DNA of 64,000 bases from an uncultured Chloroflexia bacterium (GCA_963842805.1 CAWJIA010000011.1:23649-87648), one strand, 5' to 3'; positions 9,737-64,000 are shown, counted from the first letter of the stretch. Numbers and translations are program-made. The notes: generated by a model from the letters alone, not told the origin.

Positions 9737-9741
9737 CCAAA

Positions 9742-10170: not shown

Positions 10171-10193
10171 TTTATGATCCTTTTCCTTAGAAT

Positions 10194-11207: not shown

Positions 11208-11230
11208 GGTGAATAGTGGTAAAAAGTGGT
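11185..11230 (+). promoter_or_regulatory. GTGG(G/T) direct-repeat array (candidate MraZ-binding repeats)
   Basis: GTGGGG 11185, GTGT 11197, GTG 11209, GTGGT 11216, GTGGT 11226; the last two exactly 10 bp apart; overlaps the -10 region. Confidence 0.35.
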
Positions 11231-11248
11231 AAATAAGGGGAAAAGGAT

Positions 11249-11614: not shown

Positions 11615-11637
11615 CAACTCCGTCAGGTTAGTTAATT

Positions 11638-12998: not shown

Positions 12999-13222
12999 AA
13001 ATAGCAGGAGGCACGGAAAATGATACAAGCAAGCAGATTCGGCACCATTCTTAATAGGGATGGGAAACTCCTGGCAATATTCAGCGGCATGGTTTTTGAC
13101 GGCATCGTTTTCATCAGCCTGATAATCGCTATTGCCATACTTTACTTCTTATAGCGTGTATTAATTTACTCACCAGGAAATTTAGCAGTTAAGTATCACT
13201 AAATCGAAGGAGGCATGGATAA

Positions 13223-14449: not shown

Positions 14450-14488
14450 TAATAAACATTTTTGAAATAGCAGGAGGTTTTAGAAAGT

Positions 14489-15601: not shown

Positions 15602-15633
15602 CAAAGTGTAGATCGATTAATGCATCGGACCCA

Positions 15634-15670
15634 AAGAGGTCGGAGAAATTTCTCCGACCTCTTTTATTAT
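15634..15670 (+). terminator. Rho-independent terminator after ftsZ
   Basis: aaagaggtcggagaaatttctccgacctcttt perfect hairpin followed by tattat T-rich tract. Confidence 0.7.
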
Positions 15671-15683
15671 GTATTGTTAGCCA

Positions 15684-15737
15684 TTGACTCCTACTATATC
15701 TTGTGCTAGTATCCTTCTACACCACACAGTGTAGTGT
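15684..15737 (+). promoter_or_regulatory. Promoter (TTGACT-17-TAGTAT) plus NrdR-box-like palindrome abutting nrdR start
   Basis: TTGACT 15684-15689, TAGTAT 15707-15712; palindrome ACACcACACaGTGTaGTGT at 15719-15737 (16/19 symmetric), resembles NrdR operator (ACAC..GTGT type). Confidence 0.45.
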
Positions 15738-16283
15738 TTGATGATGAAGTGCCCTTCTTGCGGAGAGATGGAATCTAAGGTGATAGATTCGCGAAGCCTT
15801 GGTGATGAAATACGGAGGCGTCGTGAATGTATTAAATGCAGGGAGCGCTTCACGACTTATGAGAGGATCCAGAACAGGGGCCTCTACGTAATCAAGAAAG
15901 ACGGCAGAAGGGAAGATTTCAATCGTGAGAAATTGTTTTCAGGCATACGCAAAGCCTGTGAGAAGCGTCCCATGCCGACTGGGACAATTGAAAAACTGGT
16001 CGAGACAATCGAAACCGACCTGTATCGCCTCGGCAAGACTGAGGTCCCCAGCTCGCTGATAGGGAAGATAATCGTCAGCAAACTGGCCGACATAGACCAC
16101 ATCGCATATATCAGATTCGCCAGTGTTTACTATGAGTTCTCGGATATAACCACTTTAAAGCAAGCGGTGGATACTCTGATCGAGAGCAAACACGGGGCAC
16201 CTCTGGACGGCCAGTTGCCCCTGATAAATCCCAGGGAAGCCGCAGGGCAAAAACGCAGAAGCAAGAAACAGCAACGTGGTTAA
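15738..16283 (+). CDS. nrdR: Transcriptional repressor NrdR (zinc ribbon + ATP cone)
   Basis: MKCPSCG...CIKC zinc ribbon followed by ATP-cone (VIKKDGRREDFNREKL...); real start likely ATG at 15741 or 15744. Confidence 0.9.
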   Translation: MMMKCPSCGEMESKVIDSRSLGDEIRRRRECIKCRERFTTYERIQNRGLYVIKKDGRREDFNREKLFSGIRKACEKRPMPTGTIEKLVETIETDLYRLGKTEVPSSLIGKIIVSKLADIDHIAYIRFASVYYEFSDITTLKQAVDTLIESKHGAPLDGQLPLINPREAAGQKRRSKKQQRG

Positions 16284-37400: not shown

Positions 37401-37835
37401 CCGGGTTTCGCTGTGAGGAGCAGCGTAAGCGGTCCCCAGCTCCTGGCACCCATCGACGGCGTCTGCCGGGACTGCCAGCCTACCGTCGGCTTTAGCTGGA
37501 CACCCGTTAAAAATGCCAAAAAATATGAATTCACCCTGGCTTATGATCAGGACCTCAAAAACGTAATTGTTCAGACTGTTACGACCACGACTGCATATAA
37601 ATATGAGGACCGGCTCGAGCCGGGCAGAATTTATTTCTGGCAGGTGAAAGCTGTGGCGCCGTTTGAAAGCGATCCCAGCCCTACAGGCACTTTCGTCATA
37701 GCCGGCAGCCGGCCCGTAATGCCCCTGGAGTCCCTGCCCCCGTCCTACCTGTGGATAGCTGTAATCATAGCCACGACCGTCATACTGGTTTTGATCATCG
37801 TCATATTCTTTTACAATTATATGCGCAGGTATTAA
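34422..37835 (+). CDS. BNR/Asp-box repeat cell-surface protein with signal peptide and C-terminal TM anchor (S-layer-like)
   Basis: 1137 aa; signal peptide MVMLLLLVLSILDICSFCPAAHA; Asp-box motifs SVNGGYSF, SIDGGNNW, SSNGGLSW, TADEGQKW; C-terminal LWIAVIIATTVILVLIIVIFFY + RRY. Confidence 0.7.
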   Translation: MVMLLLLVLSILDICSFCPAAHADNTSGRTLTWSVVKTPINNGPDNVICSPGEINSMALGNGVIYCADTANSRLFRSVNGGYSFTDISSDLAAAGANLPVWSVAVAPDDPKFVVVVTFTTLPLPPNPGPQQVYVSIDGGNNWQNTGPTINGAGPATDKIGTDEYISCIDISRSYGAYRDIAIGTRTTTATTGTGQVLNLKYGSAGTGWSSQPVLTAAITSLKFSPNYGSDSTLAVITCNPTSPFLNLGQHDTTTNSTIWNTPYGAYPIPLAPAASGVVPGVVIGTDLSLPSDFNAQNPALMGCFASIQSDTAFQDFMGRTTQTGVFYINTSIGATPFTITPPPVVPPGLPPGRRIYSIAYNGSEASGILLAGEATADPATAMVPVYQSSNAQSFSPGAATWTSSQDYNDYKSPTGGGNSGRANAILGWGYNGVPYCATSSENDITGGTAWAVGQWPFSKSLGVPLDESAFSYSSNGGLSWNQIGLIDTSIDQLSDSAALEAPPDATQSSVLYLSSLNKKGAPNSFDSVWRSTSDTLGDQWERILTRTTSDSGTILRVNDKTPGSTALILGDLTTPNIMYTADEGQKWETVFAGISSLRDIAFRDESTIYVLEDYRVRQLSMGDTNWVPGQFVNTDLLIPAHTICTPLVNPTSADLVFVGSGIYTLGNPEAYVAWTDFSQPSPKFTALKMLPQSGNVHVIADSKYDQNNMIYAAVNTDFKPSSEGVIYRWTVGTSTDWDELEPLNRAFFGIAMAGDVLYGSWNFDTTTLQNSGGVDRTLSPRVKVPPAPDWDELKDGLPIPPAINYPVVFTREPTSLKISSNTNNTLWSIDNSANPYNYDNKIGCLWQFIDSVARVSPWPTAPPSGSFIGVDPVTGRSQQIDIKWRQLKDVFGYDLLIAKDVNFTTLLSENATKIFNMVTVDSKTGAWVIGWDKMTGKWIATLDQSQQLSPGVWIPPGILEAGQPYYWKVRGSRSITGAAIHSLWSPVMFFSVKPGFAVRSSVSGPQLLAPIDGVCRDCQPTVGFSWTPVKNAKKYEFTLAYDQDLKNVIVQTVTTTTAYKYEDRLEPGRIYFWQVKAVAPFESDPSPTGTFVIAGSRPVMPLESLPPSYLWIAVIIATTVILVLIIVIFFYNYMRRY

Positions 37836-49277: not shown

Positions 49278-49583
49278 TTATATCTTCGGTTTTATCGCAC
49301 TATAGCAATCGCTGCAATAGACCGGCCTGTCAGCTCGAGGTTCGAAAGGTATCTCGGCCTGTTTGCCGCACTGAGCGCATACCGTCGAATACATCTGCCG
49401 CACATAGCCCTGACGGCCACCATTGCCGCCGCCGCGGGATGATTTTCTGGCCTGCCTGCAATCAGGACAGCGCTTGGGCTCGTTGGTATAACCTTTGGAC
49501 GCGTAAAATTCCTGATCGTTGGTGCTGAACGTGAACTCTTTGTTGCAGTCGGCGCAGGTTAGATTTTTGTCGGTGAAACCCAT
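49278..49583 (-). CDS. Small zinc-ribbon protein (tandem CxxC-x17-CxxC modules)
   Basis: 101 aa; CADC...CPDC and CAQCG...CSDC, Gly/Arg-rich linker. Confidence 0.6.
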   Translation of the reverse strand: MGFTDKNLTCADCNKEFTFSTNDQEFYASKGYTNEPKRCPDCRQARKSSRGGGNGGRQGYVRQMYSTVCAQCGKQAEIPFEPRADRPVYCSDCYSAIKPKI

Positions 49584-51181: not shown

Positions 51182-52810
51182 TTATCGATGTCCGGTTAAT
51201 AAAGTATTATTAGTTGAGCGTAATCGGATTGATGCATTCGCCGGATTGATCTTATATAACACTCGTTGAATATTTGGGACTCGAACAATTACGTATTTCG
51301 ATGCTCTTCCACGCTGCCTTCGCTTGTCTGTGCAAAGGCAAGTCTAAACATTTTGGGGTCAATTACAAATTCTTTTCCCGTACAACGGATCCAATCATTG
51401 ACCGCTTCTATCACGCCAAAGAGCATACCCGCATATCCCTGTATATAGGCCTCATTCACCTTATACATCCGTAGCAAGTTGGGCACTTGATGTGCCGAAA
51501 AATCCCCAAAATCGGCAACAACATATTTATCGCCTGTCAGGCGACTCAAAAGCAGATATCTTTGCAACTGATCTGAAGCTGGAGCGGACTTCCCACCTGG
51601 TAAAGTGACCTTTTGTAAGAGTTGGGGCCGGTCGCTGTTTCATATTACGCCCGCAATAGTTGAGGAGCATATTTTACGTAATGGCCTGGAAGAAGAGGAC
51701 GAAGATGCCCCCAATTTCTAGCGTAGATGTACAACAGATGAGTTGCTAAGATGTCTACTCTCGAATTTGTCATCGCAGCCCGTATTACGATCAAAGGGGG
51801 CAAAGGGTAAAATGCAAGGATACAAGGATATATTCCTGGAAAAGAGGGTAGGGAAAAATTAAAAAACGATCAAAAGGGCTAAAATGATTTTTAATATCTC
51901 CGTACCCCCTTTTATGGCAAGTATATCCTTGTATCCTTGTAAGCCACTCTCAGCCCACGATCGACAAGGATATCCCTTTTCGGCAAAATGATATCCCTGT
52001 CGATCCTTGTATCCTTGCATGTAAACAAATGTTTTGGGCTGGCAAAAAGATAGACTTAACGGATGAGTTACCCGTCAGATACTTCTGATAAAAGTACCGG
52101 TTTGAAGCTAATCTGCAGATGGAACGGTACTTCTTCCCTAGCAAAGTGATCTTGTGGAAGCTGACTTCCCACCTGGCAACGTCCCGAATCCGGAAACTGT
52201 GCGAGGGGTGGTAGGGTCGATGGACTGACCCACAGCCAGCAGACTATCAGGCTGGCAGGTAGCAGCGTGACAGGCACTATCCGGTTATGTTGGAGATGAG
52301 GGAGGCCCCGCCTACATCATACCATTCATTCTTCAGCTACTGATACAAAGAAGAGTGTTGGCTGTTAGGTTCAACGCGGGAGGATGATATGACTGATCTG
52401 AAATGTTCAAACTGCGACTGTAACACACCGCCGGATGCCGCCAGGCGTCCAAATTGCGAACGATACGCAAAGGGAGAGATAGGATGTCTCCGAAGAATAA
52501 TGTGAATAGCCTCGTCTTAACAAAGTGTGGCATGATAACGGCAACATGCAGACTTTAGTAGTATTCAATAATTTGATTATATATTAGATAACTATATTTG
52601 ATTATGTCGTGTAAATAAGAGTATTTTCAACAAATAAAAATGCTGGCGGAGGAAACTTGACAGATAATTCTATGTAGTTATACTATTTGTACTGAATGAT
52701 ACTAATGTTATGGCAATATGGTAGTTTCGACAATTTTAGCGAGTAAGCTTCATAGATAGCTCCATATAACGCCAAGATTCAAACTGAATGAAACTAATGT
52801 TGGGGACATA
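51182..52810. repeat. 1.6-kb repeat-dense non-coding region (direct repeats and CAAGGATA-type inverted-repeat cluster); possible decayed mobile element/MITE or regulatory array
   Basis: ~37-bp direct repeats gcaA(C/A)(T/G)TGATCT..GAAGCTG..GACTTCCCACCTGG at 51564-51600 and 52141-52176; perfect 18-bp inverted repeats CAAGGATACAAGGATATA at 51815-51832 and 51922-51939 with third inverted copy at 52002-52020; no convincing ORF. Confidence 0.5.
52657..52801 (+). promoter_or_regulatory. Putative promoter (TTGACA-16-TATACT) and two 19-bp direct repeats (ACTGAATGAWACTAATGTT) upstream of the TetR-GRE operon
   Basis: TTGACA 52657-52662, TATACT 52679-52684; repeats at 52691-52709 and 52783-52801 (1 mismatch), the second ending 9 bp before the GTG start of the TetR gene. 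Confidence 0.4.
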
Positions 52811-54004
52811 GTGATCGAACGCAAACGGGCTCCGATGCTGACCAGGCAGAATATTCTAAACGCTGCTTCCAGAGGAATGGCCCAGAATGGATACGAGGGT
52901 TCTAAGTTGAACGAAATTGCGCAAGAAGCAGGCGCGACAGAACCAACTATTTATCTGCATTTTAAAGGAAAGGAGAGTCTGTTGTTCTCTGTTGCTGAGG
53001 AACATATGGCTAGATACCTCCTTTTCCTTAACGAACACGAACAGGGGATCATCGGCGCTCATGACAAATTACGTAAACTTGTCTGGGCCCACCTGCGATA
53101 CAGCGATATAGACACAGAATTTATGCGTCTAGTTCTGTTTGACTGTAGAAACAACCGGAATTTTTATGAATCTGATGCCTACAAGCTGGTTCGTAAGTAT
53201 TCTGGAATTCTATCGTCCATTCTCGACGAAGGTATCAGGGAGAAAGTTTTCAGGTCGGACATGAACGTACCGCTGGTTCGGGACATTATTTTTGGCCTCA
53301 TGGATTACGAGGCGATCCAATATTTTGTAAGCAAAGAAAAGCCTAATGCTGTTTTGGACCTGGAAGATATTATGCAACTTCTCGATCAAATGCTTTTGCG
53401 CAAATACCAAATGGAAGATCAGCCTGCGGATAAAAGACAACGTATTCTTCAAGCAGCAGTCCAAGCTTTTGCCGAGAACGGATATGCCAAGGCGACCATT
53501 GCGGAGATCGCCCACGAGGCTGGTGTGGCGGACGGAACAGTTTATGAGTATTTCAAAAATAAGGAAGATGTTCTAGTCTATATTGCGGAAGAACGTTTCG
53601 CAGGACACCTAGAACAACTTAAACAGACTTTCAGCGGTAACACCCCTAGAAAGCTGTGGCTTTTAATGCTGAACCATTTTCAGCAGTATCTGGATGATCC
53701 GAATTTTGCCGTAGTCTTCTTAACCATGATTCAGTTTAACCGCCGTTTTTATCAATCACGCGCGTACATAAGCCAGCACAACTACGTGATCGAACTTGAA
53801 AAACTGATACAGGAAATCATCAATGAGGGAAGTCTGCAGAATATTAATATCAGGGTTTTTGGAAATATGTTTTTAGGAGCATTTAGCCATATGGCACTCC
53901 GGTGGTTTCTGGTAGATCGTGATCGAAATTTTGACAAGATGGCAGAAATCAAGGAGGTTGCTATACTTTTTTCAGATGCATTATCTCCCAAATTTAATTT
54001 ATAG
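52811..54004 (+). CDS. Tandem double TetR-family transcriptional regulator (two complete TetR HTH + ligand-binding modules in one polypeptide)
   Basis: 397 aa; two TetR_N HTH segments: ILNAASRGMAQNGYEGSKLNEIAQEAGATEPTIYLHFKGKESLL and ILQAAVQAFAENGYAKATIAEIAHEAGVADGTVYEYFKNKEDVL; GTG start. Confidence 0.8.
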   Translation: MIERKRAPMLTRQNILNAASRGMAQNGYEGSKLNEIAQEAGATEPTIYLHFKGKESLLFSVAEEHMARYLLFLNEHEQGIIGAHDKLRKLVWAHLRYSDIDTEFMRLVLFDCRNNRNFYESDAYKLVRKYSGILSSILDEGIREKVFRSDMNVPLVRDIIFGLMDYEAIQYFVSKEKPNAVLDLEDIMQLLDQMLLRKYQMEDQPADKRQRILQAAVQAFAENGYAKATIAEIAHEAGVADGTVYEYFKNKEDVLVYIAEERFAGHLEQLKQTFSGNTPRKLWLLMLNHFQQYLDDPNFAVVFLTMIQFNRRFYQSRAYISQHNYVIELEKLIQEIINEGSLQNINIRVFGNMFLGAFSHMALRWFLVDRDRNFDKMAEIKEVAILFSDALSPKFNL

Positions 54005-54041
54005 GACACTATCATAAAATGCTTAAAAGGGAAGAAATAAG

Positions 54042-56459
54042 ATGACAGTAGCGAAATCCAAAAAGGTTGAACACTTGGCTGAAAAGATCAGTATTAAGGC
54101 AGTACGCAACATTCGCAGGGGCCAGGAGATTGAAGAGGGGCAGGGGATTTATCGACCCGGTGTAAAGGTTTGCCCAGAGAGGAATGGTCTGCTGACCGAG
54201 TCCTATAAAACGACCGAAGGTGAACCGGCCGTGATTCGGCAGGCCAAGGCGCTTGAACATATACTCCTTAATATGACCATATATATTCGTGACTGGGATA
54301 AAATAGTAGGAAATTATGCATCATCGCCGGATGCAGTCTTCTGGCCGATTGAGCAGAACTGGAAGTCGGTGCACAGGCTGCTCCATGGTGAGGGAAGGTC
54401 TCTAATTGATGATGCGGGCAGAGAGAAACTCGACAGGCTTGTCGAGTATTGGGACGGAAAGGCGGTAAGTGATATAAGGAAAAGGGCGTTTGGCGGTTCC
54501 CCGGATCTTGAAAAGTACTGGAGATATGAAGGTACCATGTTATGGTCGCAATGGTCAGACCAGGGCGTGCCGAACTATGACAAAGTAATCAGCACCGGAC
54601 TTAATGCGATTATTAGAAAAGCAGAAGAAAGACTTAAGGAGTTAGGAACAAGCCTTCCTTCTGATTATATTCAGCAAAAGGATTTTCTGGAGGCAGTAAT
54701 CATTGCCCTGAGAGCAGCAATAAAATGGGCTGAGAGATACGCTATAAAGGCAGAGGAATTGGCGACAAAAGAGGAGGACAAGAAGAGGAAAAAGGAGCTC
54801 GAGGAAATTGCTCGTATCTGCAGAAAAGTTCCAGCAAACCCGGCATCTACCTTCCAGGAAGCTCTCCAGTCCTTCATTTTTACACACCTTATCGGGCATC
54901 AGATTGAATTTATCACCCTTGGATGCGGCCTCCGATTTGACATGACCCTGGAACCCTTTTTCCAGAAGGATATCGCCGAGGGTAAAATCACCAGAGATGA
55001 AGCGATTGAGCTGATTAAACACACCCGGATCCACCTTGAAGAGCTTGGCCAGATGTACTCCCCGACCACCACACAGGTTTACGGGGGGGTCCAGGTTCTC
55101 CAGTCCATTGTCATTGGCGGTGTTGACTCCGAGGGAAGGGATGTTACTGGAGAGACAAGCTACATGATCCTCAATTCTGTCCTGGAATTGCCAACCCTGC
55201 AACCGAGCATTGTCTTAAGAGTTCATGACGGTACTCCCAAAGAACTTATCCTCAAGGCGATCGATGTTATCAAGACAGGTGTCGGCTATCCGTCCCTTCA
55301 GAATGACAAGGCGCTTATTCCTCTGATGATGAAATGGAACTGCCCTCTCGAAGATGCAAGAAATTACACCATAAGCGGGTGCGTTTACCTTGATGTTCCC
55401 GGCAAGAATATTCTGCGCCGGAACGCAACCTACTTTTCTCTGCCCAAGTGCCTATGGTGGGCACTTCACCAGGGAGTCAATCCCAAAAACGGAGAGCAAT
55501 ATGGAGCCGCTACAAAGGATCCAGCCTACTTTGAATCTATTGATGATGTGATGGATGCCTACATTGAGCAGGTTAGATTCTTCATGGATAAACAGGTCAA
55601 AGTGGAAAATATCACAAGAGCCATATATGCCGAACGGTATCCGCGACCCTTTGAATCTGCATTGACCGATGGCTGTATTGAGCGCGGTCAGGATATGAGA
55701 AAGTGGCGATATCAGGGACGTGTCGAGAGTTTTTCAATATCCGTGGGGTTGACCAATGTGGCTGATTCGCTGGCGGCTATAAAGAATGTAGTGTTTGCTG
55801 AAAGAAGAGTAACCATGAAGCAACTGATCGAAATCATGGACAAAAACTGGGAAGGGCATGAGGAGTTACGTCTGATAATGCTGGCAGCACCCAAATTTGG
55901 GAATGACGATGATTATGTAGACATGATCGCCAACGACTTACATCATCGGACGGAAGAGGTGGTCGAACAGTTCTCAGATATTTATGGCTCCGCTTTTCAC
56001 CTAGATGGGAGTGCGGTTTCCGCCAGCTACGGCCTGTCTCTTGACACCCCAGCCACGCCGGACGGAAGAAAAGACGGAGACGGGTTTGCGGATGGGTCCA
56101 TCTCACCAATGCTTGGGATGGATGTCAACGGGCCGACCGCCGTACTGAAATCCTGCTCGAAGATAGATACACTCAAGACCTATAATCATCTGCTGAACCA
56201 GAAGTTTCTTCCCCAGTTTCTGGAAGGGAAAAACAGGGAAATCTTTTACTACTATATCAAGTCATGGGTCGATTTTGGAATCCCTCATATCCAGTTCAAC
56301 GTGATAGACAGGGAAACACTTCTTGATGCCCAAAAACACCCTGAAAAGCACAGCAACCTAATTGTAAGGGTTGCCGGGTACAGTGCCTATTTTGTAGATC
56401 TTTCCACAGGGCTCCAGGACCATATAATCGAAAGGACCGAGCAGGCGTTTGCAGGGTAA
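54042..56459 (+). CDS. Glycyl radical enzyme (PFL/glycerol-dehydratase superfamily), paralog 1
   Basis: 805 aa; C-terminal glycyl radical signature LIVRVAGYSAYFVDL; single-Cys loop ISGCVYLDVPGKN; ~55-60% identity to downstream paralogs. Confidence 0.85.
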   Translation: MTVAKSKKVEHLAEKISIKAVRNIRRGQEIEEGQGIYRPGVKVCPERNGLLTESYKTTEGEPAVIRQAKALEHILLNMTIYIRDWDKIVGNYASSPDAVFWPIEQNWKSVHRLLHGEGRSLIDDAGREKLDRLVEYWDGKAVSDIRKRAFGGSPDLEKYWRYEGTMLWSQWSDQGVPNYDKVISTGLNAIIRKAEERLKELGTSLPSDYIQQKDFLEAVIIALRAAIKWAERYAIKAEELATKEEDKKRKKELEEIARICRKVPANPASTFQEALQSFIFTHLIGHQIEFITLGCGLRFDMTLEPFFQKDIAEGKITRDEAIELIKHTRIHLEELGQMYSPTTTQVYGGVQVLQSIVIGGVDSEGRDVTGETSYMILNSVLELPTLQPSIVLRVHDGTPKELILKAIDVIKTGVGYPSLQNDKALIPLMMKWNCPLEDARNYTISGCVYLDVPGKNILRRNATYFSLPKCLWWALHQGVNPKNGEQYGAATKDPAYFESIDDVMDAYIEQVRFFMDKQVKVENITRAIYAERYPRPFESALTDGCIERGQDMRKWRYQGRVESFSISVGLTNVADSLAAIKNVVFAERRVTMKQLIEIMDKNWEGHEELRLIMLAAPKFGNDDDYVDMIANDLHHRTEEVVEQFSDIYGSAFHLDGSAVSASYGLSLDTPATPDGRKDGDGFADGSISPMLGMDVNGPTAVLKSCSKIDTLKTYNHLLNQKFLPQFLEGKNREIFYYYIKSWVDFGIPHIQFNVIDRETLLDAQKHPEKHSNLIVRVAGYSAYFVDLSTGLQDHIIERTEQAFAG

Positions 56460-56482
56460 GCAGTCATTAGGGGATTAACGAC

Positions 56483-57406
56483 ATGAGTTTTAACAACTCT
56501 GACAACAATAGCAAAGGGTTGGTATTCAACATCCAGAAGTATTCTCTTGATGACGGCCCTGGAATCAGAACGACGGTCTTTATGAAGGGATGTTCCCTGG
56601 CCTGCAAGTGGTGCAGTAATCCGGAATCAATAAATCGGAATCAAGAGACCATGACCCGTAACCTGAGATGTATCGCATGCGGAAAATGTGCGGCGGCCTG
56701 TCCAATTGTGGCGATCGCCTTTACAGACGGACACAGGGAAATAAACTGGGAGAGGTGCAACAACTGCCTTGAATGTGCCAGGGTATGCCCGGCAAAGGCT
56801 ATTGAATCTATCGGGCATTACATGACCGTGGAAGAAGTAATGAAAAAGGTAGAAGCTGACCGGACATTCTATGAAAATTCAAACGGCGGAATGACAATAT
56901 CGGGCGGTGAACCACTTGTTCAGCCGAAATTTGTCAGAGACCTGTTTAAAAATTGTCGGGAAAAAGGAATCCATACCACCTTAGACACCACCAGCAACGC
57001 ACCGTGGCAGGACATAGAGAACGTCCTCGAGTATGTTGACCTTGTTCTTCAGGATATCAAGCACATGGACACAGGGATGCATAAGAAAGGCACAGGTGTC
57101 GGGAATAAGCTTATACTTGAAAATGCCAAAAAAATCGCTATGCGGAAGAGGATATGGATTAGGATACCGCTTATCCCGGGGTTCAATGATTCGGAAGTAA
57201 ACATAAAAAAGACTGCTGAATTGGGATTAGATATAGGTGTGGAAAAAGTATCGCTGCTGCCATACCACGAGCTGGGGGCATCCAAATATCCGGCGCTAGG
57301 CCGGGTCTATCCGATGCAGGGAACCAAGCCTCCTGAGAAGAAAGTTATAGAAAAGATCAGAAAGACAATGGAATCATATGGGTTGAAGGTTGAAATCGGG
57401 AGGTAA
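56483..57406 (+). CDS. Glycyl-radical-enzyme activating enzyme (radical SAM, with ferredoxin-like insert)
   Basis: 307 aa; GIRTTVFMKGCSLACKWCSNPE radical-SAM CxxxCxxC, additional CIACGKCAAACP and CNNCLECARVCP clusters, GGEPL motif. Confidence 0.9.
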   Translation: MSFNNSDNNSKGLVFNIQKYSLDDGPGIRTTVFMKGCSLACKWCSNPESINRNQETMTRNLRCIACGKCAAACPIVAIAFTDGHREINWERCNNCLECARVCPAKAIESIGHYMTVEEVMKKVEADRTFYENSNGGMTISGGEPLVQPKFVRDLFKNCREKGIHTTLDTTSNAPWQDIENVLEYVDLVLQDIKHMDTGMHKKGTGVGNKLILENAKKIAMRKRIWIRIPLIPGFNDSEVNIKKTAELGLDIGVEKVSLLPYHELGASKYPALGRVYPMQGTKPPEKKVIEKIRKTMESYGLKVEIGR

Positions 57407-57440
57407 AAAATTTTCAAGAATTCTTACGGAGGGACAAAAA

Positions 57441-59888
57441 ATGAGTAGAGTAATGACTGAAAAAAGCACCGGGACACCGTGGCCGGAGCTTAGTGACGAT
57501 CTCCGCATGCTCAGACAGAATGTCTCGATCAAGGTGTCCAGGAATGTTCGGCAGGGGTATGAGAAAGATGAGCACAAACGGGGTATGTACAGAACAAGCA
57601 TCAAGCTGAATGTTGTAAGGAATCGCCTTTTGACCGAATCATACAAGGCTACGGAAGGCGAACCAATGGTCCTGCGGCGGGCAAAGGCCCTGGCCCACAT
57701 CCTGAGAAATCTGCCTGTTTATACTGTGCCCCACGAGCGCATTGTCGGCCATTCAGGAGCAACCCCGGATGAGCTTTATTATCCCATAGAGGTGAACTGG
57801 GAATCTGCCTGGCGGGCCATGAACTCCGATGACGCTCGCGAGATCCTGGATGATGAGGGACGCGCCGAGATGGAGAAGATTGTTGAATACTGGAAAGGCA
57901 AGACCCTGAGTGACCTGCGCAAGAATGCCTTTAAGGGAGACCTGGAAAAATACTTCAAGTTTGAAGGAACATTCCTCTGGTCCCACTGGGACGAAGGGGC
58001 CGTACCGAATTATGAAAGGCTGTTCAAAATTGGCCTGAAAGGTCTCAGAAAAGAGGCAGAGGAAAGGCTTCAGGAAGTGATTGACACCATTCCTGATAAT
58101 TACCTTGAACAGCATGATTTTTTGCAGGGCGTTTTGATCACTCTGGATGCAGCAGTGGATTTTGCCCGAAGATATGCGGAAAGAGCAAGAGAGGACGCTG
58201 CCAAGGAGAATGATCCAAAAAGGAAGAAGGAGCTTGAGCAGATCGCCAGAATTTGTGACCGGGTGCCTGAAAATCCGGCACAAACCCTGCACGAGGCCCT
58301 TCAGTTCTTCTGGTTTATTACCCTGATTAAGGGGCAACTTGAATTTGCAAACCTTACCCTCGGTAGCAGGTTTGATATTCTATTTAACCCTTATTACCAG
58401 AAAGATCTAGCTGAACGGAGGATTACCAGAAAGGAGGCTGTTGAGCTGATACAGCACCTGTTCGTACATTTCGAGGAGTCGGGGGAGTGGTTTTCTCCCA
58501 TGATCACCGGTATCTATGGAGGTGTCCAGCAGCTTGAGGGAATCACCCTGGGCGGTATTGACGAAAACGGACATGATGTCACCAATGATATGACATATAT
58601 ATGCCTTGAAGCAGCTAAGGGCCTCCGTCAGCTTCAGCCGACCATCGCCCTGAGGGTGCACAAAAACACTCCCAAGGAACTTCTTGCAGCAGCCACGGAC
58701 GTCATAAGAACCGGAGTCGGGTATCCCTCCCTGTTTAATGACGAGGCACTGATTCCTCTCATAAATAAATGGGGTACCCCCCTGAAGGACGCCAGAAATT
58801 ATAACGTGTTCGGCTGTGTGTACCTTGATATTCCCGGGAAAAACAATAATGCAAGGCGTGCATCAGGCTATTTTGTACTTCCGAAATGTCTGTGGTGGGC
58901 TCTGCACCGGGGCGTTAATCCAAAGACAGGCGAGCAATACGGTGCACGGACGCCTGACCCTGAAACCTTCACCGGCATCCAGGATGTTATTGAAACGTAT
59001 CTCGATCAGGTCAGATTCTTCTTCGGCAAGATGGTAAAGCTGGAGAACACCTCCCGAGGACTCTACCGGGAATATGCGCCCAGGCCTTTCCTGTCAGCCT
59101 TCCTGGACGGCTGCATAGAGCGTGGGCAGGATGCAAAGGAGTGGGCCGATACTACTTCCTCTATTAACGCCTTTAACATCATCATCGGTCCGACCAATGT
59201 GGCCGATTCCCTGGCTGCGATAAAGAAGCTGGTTTTTGATGACAAGGAATTGACCATGCGGGAGTTCATCGACATCCTGGATAAAAACTGGGAAGGTCAT
59301 GAAGATCTTCGCCAGAGGGTCATAAACCAGGTCCCCAAATTTGGCAATGATGACGACTATGTTGATCTTCTTGCCAAGGAGGTTCACGAACGTTCAGAAG
59401 CTATCTATCAGGAGTTTACCGATGAGCACGGTGCTAAATGGAGAGGTGACGGAAGCGGCGTATCTGCGACATATGGCCTTGGACCCGGAACACCGGCCAC
59501 ACCCGATGGTAGAAAAGACGGCGAGCCTTTTTCCGATGCTACCCTGTCGCCAATGCTTGGCCGGGATATAAACGGCCCCACTGCCGTTCTGGCATCATGC
59601 GCCAAAATCAAACCCCTTAATCAGCTTCTGAATCAGAAGTTCCTTCCCCAGTTTCTGGATGACGAGCATAAGGAACAGTTTATCAGCTACCTCAGGTCCT
59701 GGTGCGATATGGGAGTCCCTCATATCCAGTTTAATGTCGTGGACAATGCAACCTTGAGGGATGCCCAGAAACATCCCCAAAAGTACACCAACCTGATTGT
59801 AAGAGTTGCAGGTTACAGCACCTATTTCGTGGATCTCAGCAAAGGCCTGCAGAACCATATTATTGCAAGGGCAGAACAGCAGTTTTAG
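57441..59888 (+). CDS. Glycyl radical enzyme, paralog 2
   Basis: start at ATG 57441 (MSRVMTEKS, RBS ggaggga) by analogy with paralog 3; Cys loop FGCVYLDIPGKNNN; C-terminal RVAGYSTYFVDL. Confidence 0.85.
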   Translation: MSRVMTEKSTGTPWPELSDDLRMLRQNVSIKVSRNVRQGYEKDEHKRGMYRTSIKLNVVRNRLLTESYKATEGEPMVLRRAKALAHILRNLPVYTVPHERIVGHSGATPDELYYPIEVNWESAWRAMNSDDAREILDDEGRAEMEKIVEYWKGKTLSDLRKNAFKGDLEKYFKFEGTFLWSHWDEGAVPNYERLFKIGLKGLRKEAEERLQEVIDTIPDNYLEQHDFLQGVLITLDAAVDFARRYAERAREDAAKENDPKRKKELEQIARICDRVPENPAQTLHEALQFFWFITLIKGQLEFANLTLGSRFDILFNPYYQKDLAERRITRKEAVELIQHLFVHFEESGEWFSPMITGIYGGVQQLEGITLGGIDENGHDVTNDMTYICLEAAKGLRQLQPTIALRVHKNTPKELLAAATDVIRTGVGYPSLFNDEALIPLINKWGTPLKDARNYNVFGCVYLDIPGKNNNARRASGYFVLPKCLWWALHRGVNPKTGEQYGARTPDPETFTGIQDVIETYLDQVRFFFGKMVKLENTSRGLYREYAPRPFLSAFLDGCIERGQDAKEWADTTSSINAFNIIIGPTNVADSLAAIKKLVFDDKELTMREFIDILDKNWEGHEDLRQRVINQVPKFGNDDDYVDLLAKEVHERSEAIYQEFTDEHGAKWRGDGSGVSATYGLGPGTPATPDGRKDGEPFSDATLSPMLGRDINGPTAVLASCAKIKPLNQLLNQKFLPQFLDDEHKEQFISYLRSWCDMGVPHIQFNVVDNATLRDAQKHPQKYTNLIVRVAGYSTYFVDLSKGLQNHIIARAEQQF

Positions 59889-59919
59889 CGCATAAATAAA
59901 AGATGAAGCGAGGACGAAA

Positions 59920-62361
59920 ATGAGTAGAGTAATGACTGAAAAAAGCACCGGGACACCGTGGCCGGAGCTTAGTGACGATCTCCGCATGCTCAGACAGAAT
60001 GTCTCGATCAAGGTGTCCAGGAATGTTCGGCAGGGATACCAGAAAGATGAGCACAAACGGGGCATGTACCGGTCAAGCATCAAACTGAATGTGGAAAGGA
60101 ATCGCCTTTTGACCGAATCATACAAGGCTACGGAAAGCGAACCAATGGTCCTGCGGCGGGCAAAGGCCCTGGCGCATATCCTAAGGAATATGAGTATATT
60201 CATTGTCCCGAACTCCCGTATTGTTGGCCACTCCGGGTCAACACCAAACGATCTTTATTATCCCATAGAGGTGAACTGGAAATCTGCCTGGCGGGCCATG
60301 AATTCGGATGACGCTCGCGAGATCCTGGATGATGAGGGACGCGCCGAGATGGAGAAAATTGTTGAATACTGGAAAGGCAAGACCCTGAGTGACCTGCGCA
60401 AAAATGCCTTCAAGGGAGACCTGGAAAAATACTTCACATATGAAGGAACATTCCTCTGGTCCCACTGGGACGAACTGGGAATTCCCAACTATGAAAAACT
60501 GTTGACAAAAGGGATCAACGGAATAAAGAAGGAAGCTGAAGAAAAACTAAAGAAGGTAATAGCATCGATTCCCGATGACTACCTTGAGCAGTGTGAATTT
60601 TTAGAAGCTGTTATCATCAGCTTGGAGGCAACAATCGATTTTGCCCGAAGGTATGCTAAAAAGGCAAAGGAGATTGCCAAAAGTGAAAAAAATGGGGCAT
60701 GGAAAAGGCAGCTTGAGCAGATTGCGGAAGTCTGCCGCCGAGTACCTGCTGAGCCAGCAACTACTTACTACGAAGCTCTGCAGTCCTTTTGGTTTATCAA
60801 CCTGATCACCAGACAGATCGAGCTTGTGAGCCTCGGATGCGGCGCCAGGTTTGATGCCCTCTTTGGTCCGTACTATCAGAATGATCTTGCCGAGGGCAGA
60901 ATTACCAGGGAAGAGGCGCTTGAGCTAATGGAGCATCTTTTGTTGAAGTTTGAGGAGTCGGGGATGTGGTATTCACCACTGGTCACCGGTATTTATGGCG
61001 GTGTCCAGCAGCTCCAAGGAATCACCCTGGGCGGTATTGACGAAAACGGACATGATGTCACCAATGACATAACATATATAACCCTTGAGGCTGCCAGAAA
61101 GCTTTACATCCTTCAACCGACCATCGCCCTGAGGGTGCACAAAAACACTCCCAAGGAACTTCTTGCAGCAGCCACGGACGTCATAAGAACCGGAGTCGGG
61201 TATCCCTCCCTGTTTAATGACGAGGCACTGATTCCTCTCCTGCATGAATGGAAGGTTGCTGAAAAGGACATCTATAATTACTCCGTCAGCGGATGCGTTT
61301 ATCTTGACGTCCCCGGTAAAAACCTGGTTCGCAGGGCATCAGGCTATTTTGTACTTCCGAAATGTCTGTGGTGGGCTCTGCACCGGGGCGTTAATCCAAA
61401 GACAGGCGAGCAATACGGTGCACGGACGCCTGACCCTGAAACCTTCACCGGCATCCAGGATGTTATTGAAGCGTATCTCGATCAGGTCAGATTCTTCTTC
61501 GGCAAGATGGTAAAGCTGGAGAACACCTCCAGAGGACTCTACCGGGAATATGCGCCCAGGCCTTTCCTGTCAGCCTTCCTGGACGGCTGCATAGAGCGTG
61601 GGCAGGATACAAGAAGATGGGCCTATCCCTCAAACATGAACTCCTTTAACATCATCATCGGTCCGACCAATGTGGCCGATTCCCTGGCTGCGATAAAGAA
61701 GCTGGTTTTTGATGACAAGGAATTGACCATGCGGGAGTTCATCGACATCCTGGATAAAAACTGGGAAGGTCATGAAGATCTTCGCCAGAGGGTCATAAAC
61801 CAGGTCCCCAAATTTGGCAATGATGACGACTATGTTGATCTTCTTGCCAAGGAGGTTCACGAACGTTCAGAAGCTATCTATCAGGAGTTTACCGATGAGC
61901 ACGGTGCTAAATGGAGAGGTGACGGAAGCGGCGTATCTGCGACATATGGCCTTGGACCCGGAACACCGGCCACACCCGATGGTAGAAAAGACGGCGAGCC
62001 TTTTTCCGATGCTACCCTGTCGCCAATGCTTGGCCGGGATATAAACGGCCCCACTGCCGTTCTGGCATCATGCGCCAAAATCAAACCCCTTAATCAGCTT
62101 CTGAATCAGAAGTTCCTTCCCCAGTTTCTGGATGACGAGCATAAGGAACAGTTTATCAGCTACCTCAGGTCCTGGTGCGATATGGGAGTCCCTCATATCC
62201 AGTTTAATGTCGTGGACAATGCAACCTTGAGGGATGCCCAGAAACATCCCCAAAAGTACACCAACCTGATTGTAAGAGTTGCAGGTTACAGCACCTATTT
62301 CGTGGATCTCAGCAAAGGCCTGCAGAACCATATTATTGCAAGGGCAGAACAGCAGTTTTAG
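59920..62361 (+). CDS. Glycyl radical enzyme, paralog 3 (mosaic; C-terminal ~350 aa almost identical to paralog 2)
   Basis: 813 aa; identical first 40 aa and last ~330 aa to paralog 2, divergent central region and Cys-loop cassette SGCVYLDVPGKNLVR. Confidence 0.85.
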   Translation: MSRVMTEKSTGTPWPELSDDLRMLRQNVSIKVSRNVRQGYQKDEHKRGMYRSSIKLNVERNRLLTESYKATESEPMVLRRAKALAHILRNMSIFIVPNSRIVGHSGSTPNDLYYPIEVNWKSAWRAMNSDDAREILDDEGRAEMEKIVEYWKGKTLSDLRKNAFKGDLEKYFTYEGTFLWSHWDELGIPNYEKLLTKGINGIKKEAEEKLKKVIASIPDDYLEQCEFLEAVIISLEATIDFARRYAKKAKEIAKSEKNGAWKRQLEQIAEVCRRVPAEPATTYYEALQSFWFINLITRQIELVSLGCGARFDALFGPYYQNDLAEGRITREEALELMEHLLLKFEESGMWYSPLVTGIYGGVQQLQGITLGGIDENGHDVTNDITYITLEAARKLYILQPTIALRVHKNTPKELLAAATDVIRTGVGYPSLFNDEALIPLLHEWKVAEKDIYNYSVSGCVYLDVPGKNLVRRASGYFVLPKCLWWALHRGVNPKTGEQYGARTPDPETFTGIQDVIEAYLDQVRFFFGKMVKLENTSRGLYREYAPRPFLSAFLDGCIERGQDTRRWAYPSNMNSFNIIIGPTNVADSLAAIKKLVFDDKELTMREFIDILDKNWEGHEDLRQRVINQVPKFGNDDDYVDLLAKEVHERSEAIYQEFTDEHGAKWRGDGSGVSATYGLGPGTPATPDGRKDGEPFSDATLSPMLGRDINGPTAVLASCAKIKPLNQLLNQKFLPQFLDDEHKEQFISYLRSWCDMGVPHIQFNVVDNATLRDAQKHPQKYTNLIVRVAGYSTYFVDLSKGLQNHIIARAEQQF

Positions 62362-62392
62362 CGCATAAATAAAAGATGAAGCGAGGACGAAA

Positions 62393-64000
62393 ATGAGTAG
62401 AGTAATGACTGAAAAAAGCACCGGGACACCGTGGCCGGAGCTTAGTGACGATCTCCGCATGCTCAGACAGAATGTCTCGATCAAGGTGTCCAGGAATGTT
62501 CGGCAGGGGTATGAGAAAGATGAGCACAAACGGGGTATGTACAGAACAAGCATCAAGCTGAATGTTGTAAGGAATCGCCTTTTGACCGAATCATACAAGG
62601 CTACGGAAGGCGAACCAATGGTCCTGCGGCGGGCAAAGGCCCTGGCCCACATCCTGAGAAATCTGCCTGTTTATATTACGCCCCACGAGCGCATTGTCGG
62701 CCATTCAGGAGCAACCCCGGACGATCTTTTCTACCCCATAGAGGTGAACTGGAAATCTGCCTGGCGGGCCATGAACTCCGATGACGCTCGCGAGATCCTG
62801 GATGATGAGGGACGCGCCGAGATGGAGAAGATTGTTGAATACTGGAAAGGCAAGACCCTGAGTGACCTGCACAAGAATGCCTTTAAGGGAGACCTGGAAA
62901 AATACTTCAAGTTTGAAGGAACATTCCTCTGGTCTCTGTTTGACTCAGGGTCCATCCCTAATTATGAAAGGCTGTTCAAAATTGGCCTGAAAGGTCTCAG
63001 AAAAGAGGCAGAGGAAAGGCTTCAGGAAGTGATTGACACCATTCCTGATAATTACCTTGAACAGCATGATTTTTTGCAGGGCGTTTTGATCACTCTGGAT
63101 GCAGCAGTGGATTTTGCCCGAAGATATGCGGAAAGAGCAAGAGAGGACGCTGCCAAGGAGAATGATCCAAAAAGGAAGAAGGAGCTTGAGCAGATCGCCA
63201 GAATTTGTGACCGGGTGCCTGAAAATCCGGCACAAACCCTGCACGAGGCCCTTCAGTTCTTCTGGTTTATTACCCTGATTAAGGGGCAGATGGAGTTCGC
63301 CAACCTCGGAGGCGGCGGACGGTTTGACCTTCTCTTTTATCCGCTCTATAAGAAGGAGCTTTCCAAAGGAAAGATCACCAGACGGGAAGCCATTGAACTG
63401 TTGCAGCACCTGTTCGTACATTTCGAGGAGTCGGGGGAGTGGTTTTCTCCCATGATCACCGGTATCTATGGAGGTGTCCAGCAGCTTGAGGGAATCACCC
63501 TGGGCGGTATTGACGAAAACGGACATGATGTCACCAATGATATGACATATATATGCCTTGAAGCAGCTAAGGGCCTCCGTCAGCTTCAGCCGACCATCGC
63601 CCTGAGGGTGCACAAAAACACTCCCAAGGAACTTCTTGCAGCAGCCACGGACGTCATAAGAACCGGAGTCGGGTATCCCTCCCTGTTTAATGACGAGGCA
63701 CTGATTCCTCTCATAAATAAATGGGGTACCCCCCTGAAGGACGCCAGAAATTATCATGTACCCGGTTGTGTGTACCTTGATATTCCCGGGAAAAACAATA
63801 ATGCAAGGCGTGCATCAGGCTATTTTGTACTTCCGAAATGTCTGTGGTGGGCTCTGCACCGGGGCGTTAATCCAAAGACAGGCGAGCAATACGGTGCACG
63901 GACGCCTGACCCTGAAACCTTCACCGGCATCCAGGATGTTATTGAAGCGTATCTCGATCAGGTCAGATTCTTCTTCGGCAAGATGGTAAAGCTGGAGAAC
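62393..64000 (+). CDS. Glycyl radical enzyme, paralog 4 (5' partial, runs off window end; mosaic of paralog 2 with a distinct cassette)
   Basis: open frame from ATG 62393 to window end; nearly identical to paralog 2 except LHKNAFK, WSLFDSGSIP, and the segment MEFANLGGGGRFDLLFYPLYKKELSKGKITRREAIELLQ; Cys loop PGCVYLDIPGKNNN. Confidence 0.8.
   Translation, partial: MSRVMTEKSTGTPWPELSDDLRMLRQNVSIKVSRNVRQGYEKDEHKRGMYRTSIKLNVVRNRLLTESYKATEGEPMVLRRAKALAHILRNLPVYITPHERIVGHSGATPDDLFYPIEVNWKSAWRAMNSDDAREILDDEGRAEMEKIVEYWKGKTLSDLHKNAFKGDLEKYFKFEGTFLWSLFDSGSIPNYERLFKIGLKGLRKEAEERLQEVIDTIPDNYLEQHDFLQGVLITLDAAVDFARRYAERAREDAAKENDPKRKKELEQIARICDRVPENPAQTLHEALQFFWFITLIKGQMEFANLGGGGRFDLLFYPLYKKELSKGKITRREAIELLQHLFVHFEESGEWFSPMITGIYGGVQQLEGITLGGIDENGHDVTNDMTYICLEAAKGLRQLQPTIALRVHKNTPKELLAAATDVIRTGVGYPSLFNDEALIPLINKWGTPLKDARNYHVPGCVYLDIPGKNNNARRASGYFVLPKCLWWALHRGVNPKTGEQYGARTPDPETFTGIQDVIEAYLDQVRFFFGKMVKLEN

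Follow-up and report, generated by a model that had tools for sequence, protein, structure and literature searches.

A tandem array of four glycyl radical enzymes with a C-V-Y loop: a candidate new functional family on the X-succinate synthase side of the superfamily

Four glycyl radical enzymes behind a double TetR regulator

We analysed a 64,000-nt stretch of DNA from an uncultured Chloroflexia bacterium (GCA_963842805.1, CAWJIA010000011.1:23649-87648; hereafter the window, with positions counted over the whole stretch), the right-hand end of which, from 52811 to 64000 on the + strand, carries a tandem array of four uncharacterised, oxygen-sensitive glycyl radical enzymes (GREs) with a single activase and a double TetR regulator. 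Our reading, to which we give a probability of roughly 0.5, is that these enzymes form a new GRE functional family in which four pocket variants, served by one activase, process hydrophobic substrates with a bound carboxylate and feed acyl-CoA metabolism. As aligned here, three features define the family: a C-V-Y loop, an Arg-Arg pair at the opening of the strand that follows, and a Trp after strand 1, the last two being invariant. Addition to fumarate without accessory subunits would be the leading specific chemistry, a proposal that we make tentatively, and it is with similar caution that we suggest a new GRE functional class, either a subunit-free hydroalkylase or a Tyr-assisted radical enzyme, acting on a series of hydrophobic natural compounds. 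Seven GRE classes were recognised in 2026, and the proposed Tyr-assisted chemistry would be unlike any of them. The locus as such is a variant within the known GRE superfamily and not a new kind of system.

Open reading frame (ORF) calls and domain searches gave six + strand genes in this region. Their order on one strand, with short spacers, had been proposed in an earlier note on this DNA and was confirmed in all particulars:

52811-54004, + strand: regulator, 397 aa, a single-chain double TetR with two TetR_N and two TetR C-terminal domains.
54042-56459, + strand: GRE1, type A isozyme, 805 aa, PF02901 and PF01228; Cys447, Tyr449, Arg459-Arg460, Trp168, Gly779.
56483-57406, + strand: activase, 307 aa, the sole GRE-activating enzyme of the array, radical SAM with a two-ferredoxin-cluster insert; TIGR02494.
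57441-59888, + strand: GRE2, type C1 isozyme, 815 aa; Cys459, Tyr461, Arg472-Arg473, Gly791.
59920-62361, + strand: GRE3, type B isozyme, 813 aa; Cys459, Tyr461, Arg471-Arg472, Gly789.
62393-64000, + strand, open at the window end: GRE4, type C2 isozyme, 535 aa visible, PFL-like barrel; its C-terminus lies beyond the window.

The spacers measure, in order, 37, 23, 34, 31 and 31 nt. For GRE2 the start was placed at the ATG at 57441, which is served by a good ribosome-binding site; the ORF tool lists instead a TTG (57390) that overlaps the activase gene. Because the best promoter-like site precedes the regulator gene and no terminator-like site was found on the + strand inside the array, the array is likely a single transcription unit.

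GRE1 to GRE3 match PF02901 with E values of 1e-164 to 1e-169 and PF01228 with E about 1e-28. The motif G-C-V-Y-L-D, which the earlier note had reported for every copy, is indeed present in all four (nt 55377-55394, 58812-58829, 61291-61308 and 63764-63781), and its Cys aligns with C433 of glycerol dehydratase (GDH) and C493 of benzylsuccinate synthase (BSS). The radical Gly motif R-V-A-G-Y-S is found in the three complete copies (GRE1-3) and agrees with the superfamily pattern R-V-x-G-[YF]. A PFL-like barrel, a glycine-radical domain (GRE1-3), the loop Cys and a dedicated radical-SAM activase place the enzymes in the GRE superfamily.

Family assignment and loop motif

None of the curated GRE family thresholds (NCBIfam equivalog models) was reached by the array GREs. 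The best score, with HpsG, was 547 bits against a cut-off of 1000, and the others were 485/1100 for HypD, 444/1000 for HpfG, 432/1050 for CutC, 410/1100 for IAD, 395/1109 for the PflD type, 310/1150 for 4-hydroxyphenylacetate decarboxylase (HPAD) and 120/994 for TIGR01255 (pyruvate formate-lyase, PFL); the subfamily cut-off of TIGR01774 was also missed (560 vs 678 bits). By sequence, the closest solved structure is GDH (474 bits), with MasD at 367 and BssA at 355 bits, and the corresponding family-profile scores are 626, 529 and 505 bits. Identity to any characterised GRE is at most 38%, the top value in the annotated-plasmid collection being 37.6% to the C. butyricum GDH, and the family is 29-32% identical to BssA and MasD. 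The closest 120 database proteins (54-93% identical) come from metagenomes or metagenome-assembled genomes (MAGs) and bear generic names only; their sources are Thermodesulfobacteriota or 'Deltaproteobacteria', Dehalococcoidia or Chloroflexi, and one Lokiarchaeia (P0049). Among these homologues, 112 carry G-C-[VA]-Y, mostly as G-C-V-Y, and several others A-C-V-Y, and both R-V-[AS]-G-[YF] and K-C-L-W-W occur in 119 of the 120. The Cys of K-C-L-W-W was considered as a second catalytic Cys and dropped; in the model it sits in the helix after strand 6 and is probably peripheral.

In our alignments the loop Tyr falls in the catalytic-Glu column of GDH, propanediol dehydratase (PD), HypD and HplG, leaving no C-x-E motif. 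A Gly precedes the loop Cys, so that there is no Cys-Cys dyad of the PFL kind, and the loop reads C-V-Y-L/I and not C-M/L-S-P as in the X-succinate synthases (XSS). Nor do the enzymes show the marks of the GRE decarboxylases (HPAD, IAD, AAD and phenylacetate decarboxylase, PAD): the thresholds are missed, there is no HPAD-type small subunit and the loop residue is Tyr, as against Glu in HPAD and IAD and Gln in PAD, PAD being compared by description only. The earlier contention that the loop corresponds neither to the PFL dyad nor to the C-x-E of eliminases and HPAD thus held up, as did that of an unassigned clade, given the missed equivalog cut-offs, the identity of at most 37.6% to characterised GREs in the collection and the monophyly in 96-100% of bootstraps described below.

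According to a June 2026 review (PMC13450708), every eliminase and isomerase retains C-x-E, and the loop Glu is essential in CutC and IslA. The Cys-Cys dyad occurs only in PFL and TdcE, and PAD, which needs no small subunit, carries Gln484 two residues after its Cys (PMC13450708). The same review points out that entire GRE clades, archaeal ones included, are without experimental validation and that function assignment lags behind metagenomics. In the literature that was open to searching, we found no paper on the C-V-Y family, its loop, its Arg pair or the four-isozyme cassette.

Phylogenetic position

All trees were built by neighbour-joining (NJ) only and contained no named HypD, IslA, HPAD, IAD, PAD or AAD sequences. 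The BssA references were three bssDCAB metagenome loci (L093, L113 and L130, the last verified with 1634 bits to TutD), found by a metagenome scan with the bssA primer 7772f, most of whose 120 matches were chance; the annotated-plasmid collection contains no XSS. The MasD reference was transcribed from a HMMER alignment, and GDH, CutC, YbiW, PflB and PD-like GrpM were taken from annotated plasmids. In a 49-taxon tree the C-V-Y family was monophyletic in 100 of 100 bootstraps, with XSS as its sister group in 75 of 100.

An exhaustive search of 1.84 billion 50%-identity representatives supplied the taxa for an 81-taxon tree. Clustering at this level leaves about one representative of the C-V-Y family. 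The nearest sequences beyond it, at 40-46% identity, belong to unknown clusters with diverse non-Glu loops (C-A-V, C-M-W, C-L-Q, C-V-G, C-V-T, C-V-S, C-M-I and C-V-R), and C-x-E sequences dominate only below about 40% identity. In the 81-taxon NJ tree (769 columns, 100 bootstraps), the family had a support of 96, as had the family together with 13 neighbouring unknown clusters, and the support was 97 for XSS and 96 for XSS with their near relatives. A supergroup of the C-V-Y family and XSS, without GDH, GrpM, CutC, YbiW and all C-x-E representatives, was recovered in 100 of 100 bootstraps. As placed by these trees, the C-V-Y family is not XSS; relative to the deepest split it falls with XSS, within a largely unexplored non-C-x-E radiation. 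Structure comparison gave no discrimination between GRE classes. The earlier suggestion that the enzymes are possibly XSS-like or new survives: the family does not fall inside the XSS clade and fails three XSS hallmarks, but it lies on the XSS side of the deepest split (100/100) and keeps the fumarate-binding Arg. Tight clustering inside a characterised GRE family was not seen in the NJ trees, where the family forms a distinct clade.

Beside the family, about 15 more 50%-identity clusters (P0263-P0280) have V, W, Q, G, T, S, I or R at position Cys+2, and none of these equals a characterised loop. Judged from their loops and position, these clusters are a large unexplored GRE radiation beside XSS. 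P0265 (loop C-L-Q) was considered as a possible relative of PAD, which is doubtful, as it departs from the published PAD residues both in the position of its Cys and 13 residues further on.

Active site, activase and accessory subunits

Active-site columns were read from an L-INS-i alignment anchored on the catalytic Cys, with 36 family members sampled. In two XSS, R508 of BSS and R492 of (1-methylalkyl)succinate synthase (MASS, MasD) bind one fumarate carboxylate (PMC12358834). The Arg in this column is invariant in 36 of 36 family members and is followed by a second invariant Arg. The same column is Trp in GDH-type dehydratases and CutC and Arg in YbiW, and because YbiW also has Arg there, the pair is best read as an anion site. 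The column of MASS W185, the channel-gating Trp, holds an invariant Trp in the family, and BSS F385, L391, W613, N615, I617, V709 and L711 align with family Y, L, F, I/V, I/V, V and A, respectively. GDH H164, H281, S282, Y339, D447 and Y640 are replaced by Q/G/L, L, G/T, L, N/A and S, respectively. The pocket is predicted to be hydrophobic, with one strongly basic corner and a phenol beside the thiyl radical.

The activase scores 354 bits with TIGR02494 (cut-off 174), and its exact sequence belongs to a cluster named Dehalococcoidia bacterium. Genes for small subunits of the BssB/BssC type had been noted as absent, and this proved correct: a tblastn search for XSS accessory subunits in the window and 20 related loci (designated L with a number) gave nothing better than E = 0.06, and spacers of 23-38 nt leave no room for them. 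As a positive control, the same search recovered a gamma-subunit gene beside a MasD-like GRE in L029. In the literature, every characterised XSS has accessory subunits. The L029 locus (8676-18184, Desulfosalsimonadaceae MAG) is a genuine alkylsuccinate-synthase-type locus in its own right. A BssC-like gamma-subunit gene immediately precedes its MasD-like GRE (loop A-C-L-S-P), an activase is also encoded, and an AMP-binding ligase lies 4 kb downstream.

Possible reactions of the C-V-Y enzymes

In the scheme that we propose, the single activase would serve all four GREs, placing the radical on the Gly of their R-V-A-G-Y-S motif, and the glycyl radical would in turn generate a thiyl radical on the loop Cys. 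The substrate would lie in a largely hydrophobic pocket in which the Arg pair holds a carboxylate. Because the loop general base of the eliminases (Glu) is absent, the reaction would not be a 1,2-elimination; the leading candidate would be an XSS-like addition of a hydrophobic substrate to fumarate with no accessory subunits, and the alternative would be a different C-C or C-H chemistry using the invariant Tyr. Each isozyme would take a different member of the substrate series. The acid products would be converted by a ligase to CoA thioesters and enter a beta-oxidation-like degradation, and the acyl-CoA or the acid would relieve FadR-like repression at a conserved 19-nt candidate box. Gene conversion would keep the scaffold uniform and selection would hold the four pockets, making the cassette a substrate-range array, which would have spread between Dehalococcoidia and Thermodesulfobacteriota/Syntrophaceae, with single family genes also in Lokiarchaeia.

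Among known systems, XSS (BssA/TutD, MasD) share with the family the major PFL2-like branch (100/100), the absence of a loop Glu, the invariant Arg at R508/R492, the Trp at W185, several hydrophobic pocket residues and a CoA-activating enzyme encoded alongside. The family differs from them in its separate clade, its C-V-Y-L/I loop, the Ser at Q707/E690, a shorter Cys-loop hairpin, the lack of beta, gamma and delta subunits, an eliminase-like activase, and four isozymes on one activase. The GRE 1,2-eliminases (GDH/PD, CutC, HypD, IseG/IslA, HpsG) resemble the family in hairpin length, in the G-C-V start of the loop and in having no accessory subunits, and GDH has the highest pairwise and profile similarity to it (474 and 626 bits, 36-38% identity). 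The family in turn has Tyr and not C-x-E, has six GDH polar residues replaced, misses the equivalog cut-offs by about half, and lies on the opposite side of the deepest tree split. The 'PflD-like' or 'Ass/Bss-like' GREs of MAGs (A. fulgidus PflD, PDB 2F3O; Hermodarchaeota genes, PMC8163825) are, like the family, single-Cys enzymes with an adjacent activase and no small subunits. These come from anoxic sediments, hydrocarbon activation has been proposed for them on weak similarity, and their function is debated (PMC13450708, PMC8163825). A. fulgidus PflD is outside the C-V-Y family, with 372 bits vs > 1000 for members.

Several results weigh against our reading. The trees are distance-based and contain no named HypD, IslA, HPAD, IAD and PAD sequences, and both single-sequence and profile similarity are higher to eliminases (GDH 474/626 bits) than to XSS (MasD 367/529, BssA 355/505). 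YbiW, which acts on a sugar phosphate, has an Arg in the same column as the family, which makes this an anion site that is not fumarate-specific. The column of BSS Q707 and MASS E690 is an invariant Ser, that of BSS N615 is Ile or Val, and the loop reads C-V-Y-L instead of C-M/L-S-P. The activase scores 347 bits with eliminase-type activase models vs 236 with BssD. The cassette has no XSS accessory subunits, though all characterised XSS have them, and no mutase or carboxyl-transferase genes of the alkylsuccinate pathway lie near it. Finally, family members occur not just in seep sediments but also in anoxic lakes and basins, which makes hydrocarbons no obvious common substrate.

Three other readings have to be weighed, the main rivals among them being decarboxylation and a Tyr-based elimination. 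The enzymes could be decarboxylases of hydrophobic aryl- or alkyl-acetic acids, similar to PAD, in which the Arg pair binds the carboxylate and the four isozymes correspond to different acids. PAD has Gln rather than Glu at Cys+2 and needs no small subunit, the pocket appears hydrophobic with an invariant anion site, and a TRAP organic-acid transporter adjoins a family member in L028. We nevertheless consider this unlikely, as the acyl-CoA ligase, thiolase-like gene and CoA-transferases near the family would serve no purpose for a hydrocarbon product, the scores with IAD (410/1100 bits) and HPAD (310/1150 bits) are far under the cut-offs, with PAD compared by description only, and HPAD is the most distant PFL2-like structure by sequence.

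We find it quite improbable that the array encodes divergent 1,2-eliminases or dehydratases akin to glycerol/propanediol dehydratase, with Tyr replacing the loop Glu as proton acceptor or donor. The top sequence and profile similarities are indeed to GDH, PD, CutC and IseG, the Cys-loop hairpin has the length of that in GDH and CutC, and the activase is closest to eliminase-type activases. But all characterised eliminases and isomerases keep C-x-E, with a Glu that is essential where tested (PMC13450708), the other polar catalytic residues of GDH are gone too, and the family stands apart from all C-x-E sequences in 100 of 100 bootstraps. The context of ligase, FadR and CoA-transferase genes also misfits aldehyde-forming dehydratases. 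Such dehydratases are normally accompanied by aldehyde dehydrogenases or microcompartment genes.

We regard as very doubtful the third possibility, that these are true but subunit-free X-succinate synthases (alkyl- or arylalkyl-succinate synthases), as environmental-genomics papers have assumed for 'PflD-like' or 'Ass/Bss-like' genes. The family belongs to the same supergroup as XSS, shares the conserved Arg and Trp, and has an AssK-like ligase after the array; an identity of 29-32% was the basis on which comparable Asgard MAG genes had been called Ass/Bss (PMC8163825), and the Lokiarchaeia protein P0049 is in the C-V-Y family. Yet the family is a separate clade, bootstraps of 96-97% setting XSS and their nearest relatives apart as a group, its identity to BssA and MasD is 29-32%, and the XSS loop motif, the Q707/E690 residue and the accessory subunits were all looked for and found to be missing.

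Isozyme types and gene conversion

The four pocket variants on which our reading of a new GRE family draws can be traced within the array itself. Pairwise identity is 94% for GRE2/GRE4, 85% for GRE2/GRE3, 78% for GRE3/GRE4, and 54-57% for GRE1 vs the others. At the nucleotide level the downstream copies are mosaic, with exact tracts of up to 716 nt alternating with segments whose synonymous divergence rises to 0.7-0.8. Over 535 residues GRE2 and GRE4 show only 30 differences, 23 of which lie in three patches (GRE2 numbering):

Patch 1, residues 182-188: loop after strand 1, aligning with GDH N156-S166 and BSS 191-201.
Patch 2, residues 300-337: strand with the GDH H281/S282 column and the following helix.
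Patch 3, residues 455 and 457: beside the catalytic Cys.

The substrate channel of BSS is described in a review as built from the loop after strand 1 and the cap helix. When the array was set against those of L001, L010 and L013, four orthologous types emerged, A (GRE1), C1 (GRE2), B (GRE3) and C2 (GRE4), of which the downstream three carry the following signatures:

Type B (GRE3): WSHWDELG, LGCGAR and SVSGC; hairpin one residue shorter.
Type C1 (GRE2): WSHWDEGA, LT[LC]G[SG]R and NV[FM]GC.
Type C2 (GRE4): WSLFDSGS, LGGGGR and HVPGC.

The type signatures are conserved across three phyla (window, L001, L010 and L013). By contrast, the copies of any one genome agree exactly in their N-termini and long tracts, which vary from genome to genome. 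On the aligned sequences, the pattern is one of gene conversion among tandem paralogues, with selection guarding the type-specific pocket residues. Conservation of the type signatures amid homogenised tracts argues for four isozyme types with four substrate specificities, and against an assembly artefact. The family of related substrates that the earlier note had envisaged thus finds strong support at the level of sequence, in four orthologous types whose differences fall in pocket or channel segments and are conserved across phyla.

Four copies in independent assemblies

The four-GRE layout (double TetR, GRE, activase, three GREs and AMP-binding ligase) recurs in three independent assemblies from other samples. 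These are a 214-kb JGI contig of a related organism (L001), with 88% nucleotide identity to the window over 11.4 kb, a 313-kb Thermodesulfobacteriota contig with the complete cassette (L005/L010/L015), and a Syntrophaceae contig, also with the complete cassette (L013). Incomplete cassettes are found in L018, L022, L023 (Dehalococcoidales) and L024, and GRE1 orthologues are 81-93% identical in L001, L010, L013 and L023. Because every complete cassette holds exactly four GREs, followed by a FadD-like acyl-CoA ligase, GRE4 is expected to be the last GRE of the array, with such a ligase next.

At the gene junctions stand exact repeats of 860 nt or more, made up of the last 716 nt of GRE2/GRE3, spacers of 31 nt and the opening 116 nt of the gene that follows. 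Because of these repeats, short-read contigs of the same or related strains end just past the activase or within the second GRE (L002, L003, L011, L012, L019, L023 and L024), and for the same reason the order of the three downstream copies in the window contig is uncertain. The order A-AE-C1-B-C2 (AE, activase) is seen in the window contig only, with A-AE-B-C1-C2 in L001 and L013 and A-AE-B-C2-C1 in L010; either the array has been shuffled by recombination, or the window order is an assembly choice across the exact repeats. The tandem copies themselves, to judge by the comparisons made here, are not an assembly artefact, because the paralogues differ (54-94% identity) and the same four-GRE array stands in L001, L010/L015 and L013. 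That the copies, or their mosaic pattern and order, arise from mis-assembled strain variants with no true four-gene array is highly improbable: the exact junction repeats of about 860 nt, the breaking of short-read contigs at these junctions and an order unique to the window contig (other genomes place B right after the activase) would suit it, but four GREs and a ligase occur in three independent assemblies of other samples and phyla, the signature residues of the four types are conserved across phyla, the copies are non-identical, and the C1/C2 order also differs between L001 and L010, so natural rearrangement occurs.

Regulator, candidate operator and upstream gap

The double TetR heads every related cassette examined. 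Its best NCBIfam match is NF053878 (FadR), with 214 bits against a cut-off of 200, a threshold reached with two stretches as a tandem fusion. Its halves are 32.5% identical to each other, each matches the Bacillus-type acyl-CoA-sensing FadR (YsiA), and an N-terminal helix-turn-helix with a YsiA-like ligand domain places the protein among TetR regulators of the FadR (YsiA) type. The likeness to Bacillus-type FadR extends to the operon, which in relatives ends with an acyl-CoA ligase; the differences are that two complete TetR units lie in one chain and that the candidate operator is an asymmetric 19-nt box and not a palindrome. Three elements were found 5' of the regulator gene:

52657-52684, + strand: promoter-like site TTGACA-16-TATACT, the best of the region with 11 of 12 matches, about 125 nt 5' of the regulator gene.
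52691-52709, + strand: 19-nt box ACTGAATGATACTAATGTT, directly 3' of the promoter-like site, candidate operator of the double TetR.
52783-52801, + strand: second copy of the 19-nt box, with one mismatch, just 5' of the regulator start codon.

The AACTTGACA box of the promoter is kept upstream of the regulator in L001, L013 and L015, and we infer that the TTGACA-16-TATACT site acts as the promoter of the array. The 19-nt box recurs with 0-3 mismatches at an equal distance 5' of the regulator in L001, L010/L015, L013, L022, L023 and L024, that is, in three phyla. It has the form ACTGAATGA-N-ACTAATGTT, which is asymmetric and not palindromic, and an asymmetric candidate operator would suit a pseudo-dimeric single-chain TetR. 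The segment comprising promoter, 19-nt box and ribosome-binding site is tandemly duplicated with a period of about 92-99 nt in the window (52560-52810), L001 (8500-8765) and L023; it is duplicated in the Dehalococcoidia cassettes and single in the Thermodesulfobacteriota and Syntrophaceae cassettes. An Rfam scan of the entire window gave no match, hence no riboswitch.

The 1.6-kb gap upstream of the array (51182-52810) is real, as the earlier note had it, but its description as repeat-rich was too strong, since it is only modestly rich in repeats, with three copies of one 15-mer and a long imperfect hairpin. The 15-mer ATCCTTGTATCCTTG occurs three times in the gap (51790-52030) and nowhere else in the window, and 0 of 100 shuffles gave three matches. 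The same segment folds into an imperfect hairpin of about 160 nt and a second hairpin (z = -7.5 vs shuffles). These repeats and hairpins may be what is left of a small palindromic mobile element, or an array of protein-binding sites. The gap also contains a 92-aa ORF without a Pfam match (51289-51567, - strand), which may be a gene or a remnant of genes present there in L001.

Genomic context and horizontal spread

The ligase that follows the array in L001, L010 and L013 is FadD-like, with 537-550 bits to long-chain-fatty-acid-CoA ligase models, under their cut-offs, and in L013 and L014 a thiolase-like TLP1 gene comes after it. Single GRE and activase pairs of the family are common in Dehalococcoidia/Chloroflexi MAGs (L006, L007, L020, L021, L027 and L028), and TetR genes flank such pairs in four of the five loci examined (L020, L025, L026 and L027). 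An FMN-reductase/flavodoxin-like gene adjoins the family GRE and activase in L001 (7558-8280), L006 (13784-14668), L008 (9066-9632) and L025 (8176-8838), which span Dehalococcoidia, Lokiarchaeia and Desulfobacterota; the window has a non-coding gap in its place. The product of this FMN-reductase/flavodoxin-like gene may be the electron donor of the activase.

In L028 (1718-12741, Dehalococcoidales), genes for a TRAP transporter and two tandem family-III CoA-transferases immediately precede that of a single C-V-Y GRE and run in one direction with it and with those of its activase, an aldo-keto reductase and an ICMT/PEMT-like methyltransferase. The best matches of the CoA-transferases are succinyl-CoA:mesaconate and succinate-glutarate CoA-transferases, and the operon resembles the logic of BSS plus BbsEF. 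Taken together, the genomic context of the family points to carboxylic, possibly dicarboxylic, acids activated to CoA esters. This fits a substituted-succinate product, and an acid substrate is also compatible.

The genes neighbouring the array in the window are housekeeping genes, namely those for leucyl-tRNA synthetase, PriA, class II ribonucleotide reductase with NrdR, NAD synthase, ThiF, RpoD and a DEAD-box helicase. Relatives of the leucyl-tRNA synthetase (2206-4698) are 74-84% identical, and all those with organism names are Dehalococcoidia or Chloroflexi. In such a genome the cassette had been called unexpected, which is overstated in view of how common single GRE and activase pairs are in Dehalococcoidia/Chloroflexi MAGs. 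The proposal of an acquired island is plausible. Cassette proteins are 69-87% identical between Dehalococcoidia and Thermodesulfobacteriota/Syntrophaceae, far above the values for housekeeping genes across phyla. Homology to L001 begins only at 52533, upstream of which L001 has an FMN reductase and other genes and the window has the helicase and a 1.35-kb non-coding stretch, and NrdR is 8 kb upstream of the cassette in L001 and 36 kb upstream in the window. The GC content at third codon positions is 0.45-0.57 in the cassette vs 0.54-0.72 in adjoining genes. Because of this cross-phylum identity, the differing flanks and the lower third-position GC, the cassette was likely acquired horizontally. 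It is best explained as a horizontally shared catabolic operon.

Significance

The array provides a well-specified target in a part of GRE sequence space without a characterised member other than XSS. It offers a diagnostic C-V-Y loop, a candidate Arg-Arg anion site and four natural pocket variants on one scaffold, and the activase, regulator, candidate operator and downstream CoA ligase that belong to them are at hand. Accessory subunits are the main practical obstacle in work on XSS, and a subunit-free family could be a tractable model for radical C-H activation. The 'Ass/Bss-like' genes of uncultured Chloroflexota, Deltaproteobacteria-type lineages and Asgard archaea are widely invoked as evidence that hydrocarbons are degraded there, and the family could also serve to test whether they carry out this chemistry. 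Evolving in concert while its pocket patches stay conserved, the array clearly illustrates how a set of isozymes is maintained in nature. If these enzymes do constitute a new functional class, anaerobic carbon turnover in sediments and anoxic waters would include a widespread route that has gone unrecognised.

Other genes in the window

Two further genes of the window deserve mention. A 101-aa protein with two treble-clef zinc-finger domains (PF13451 and PF23477) is encoded at 49278-49583 on the - strand, immediately upstream of rpoD and on the same strand. An ORF of 1137 aa (34422-37835, + strand), which stands among housekeeping genes, has no Pfam match beyond a faint one to Sortilin/Vps10.

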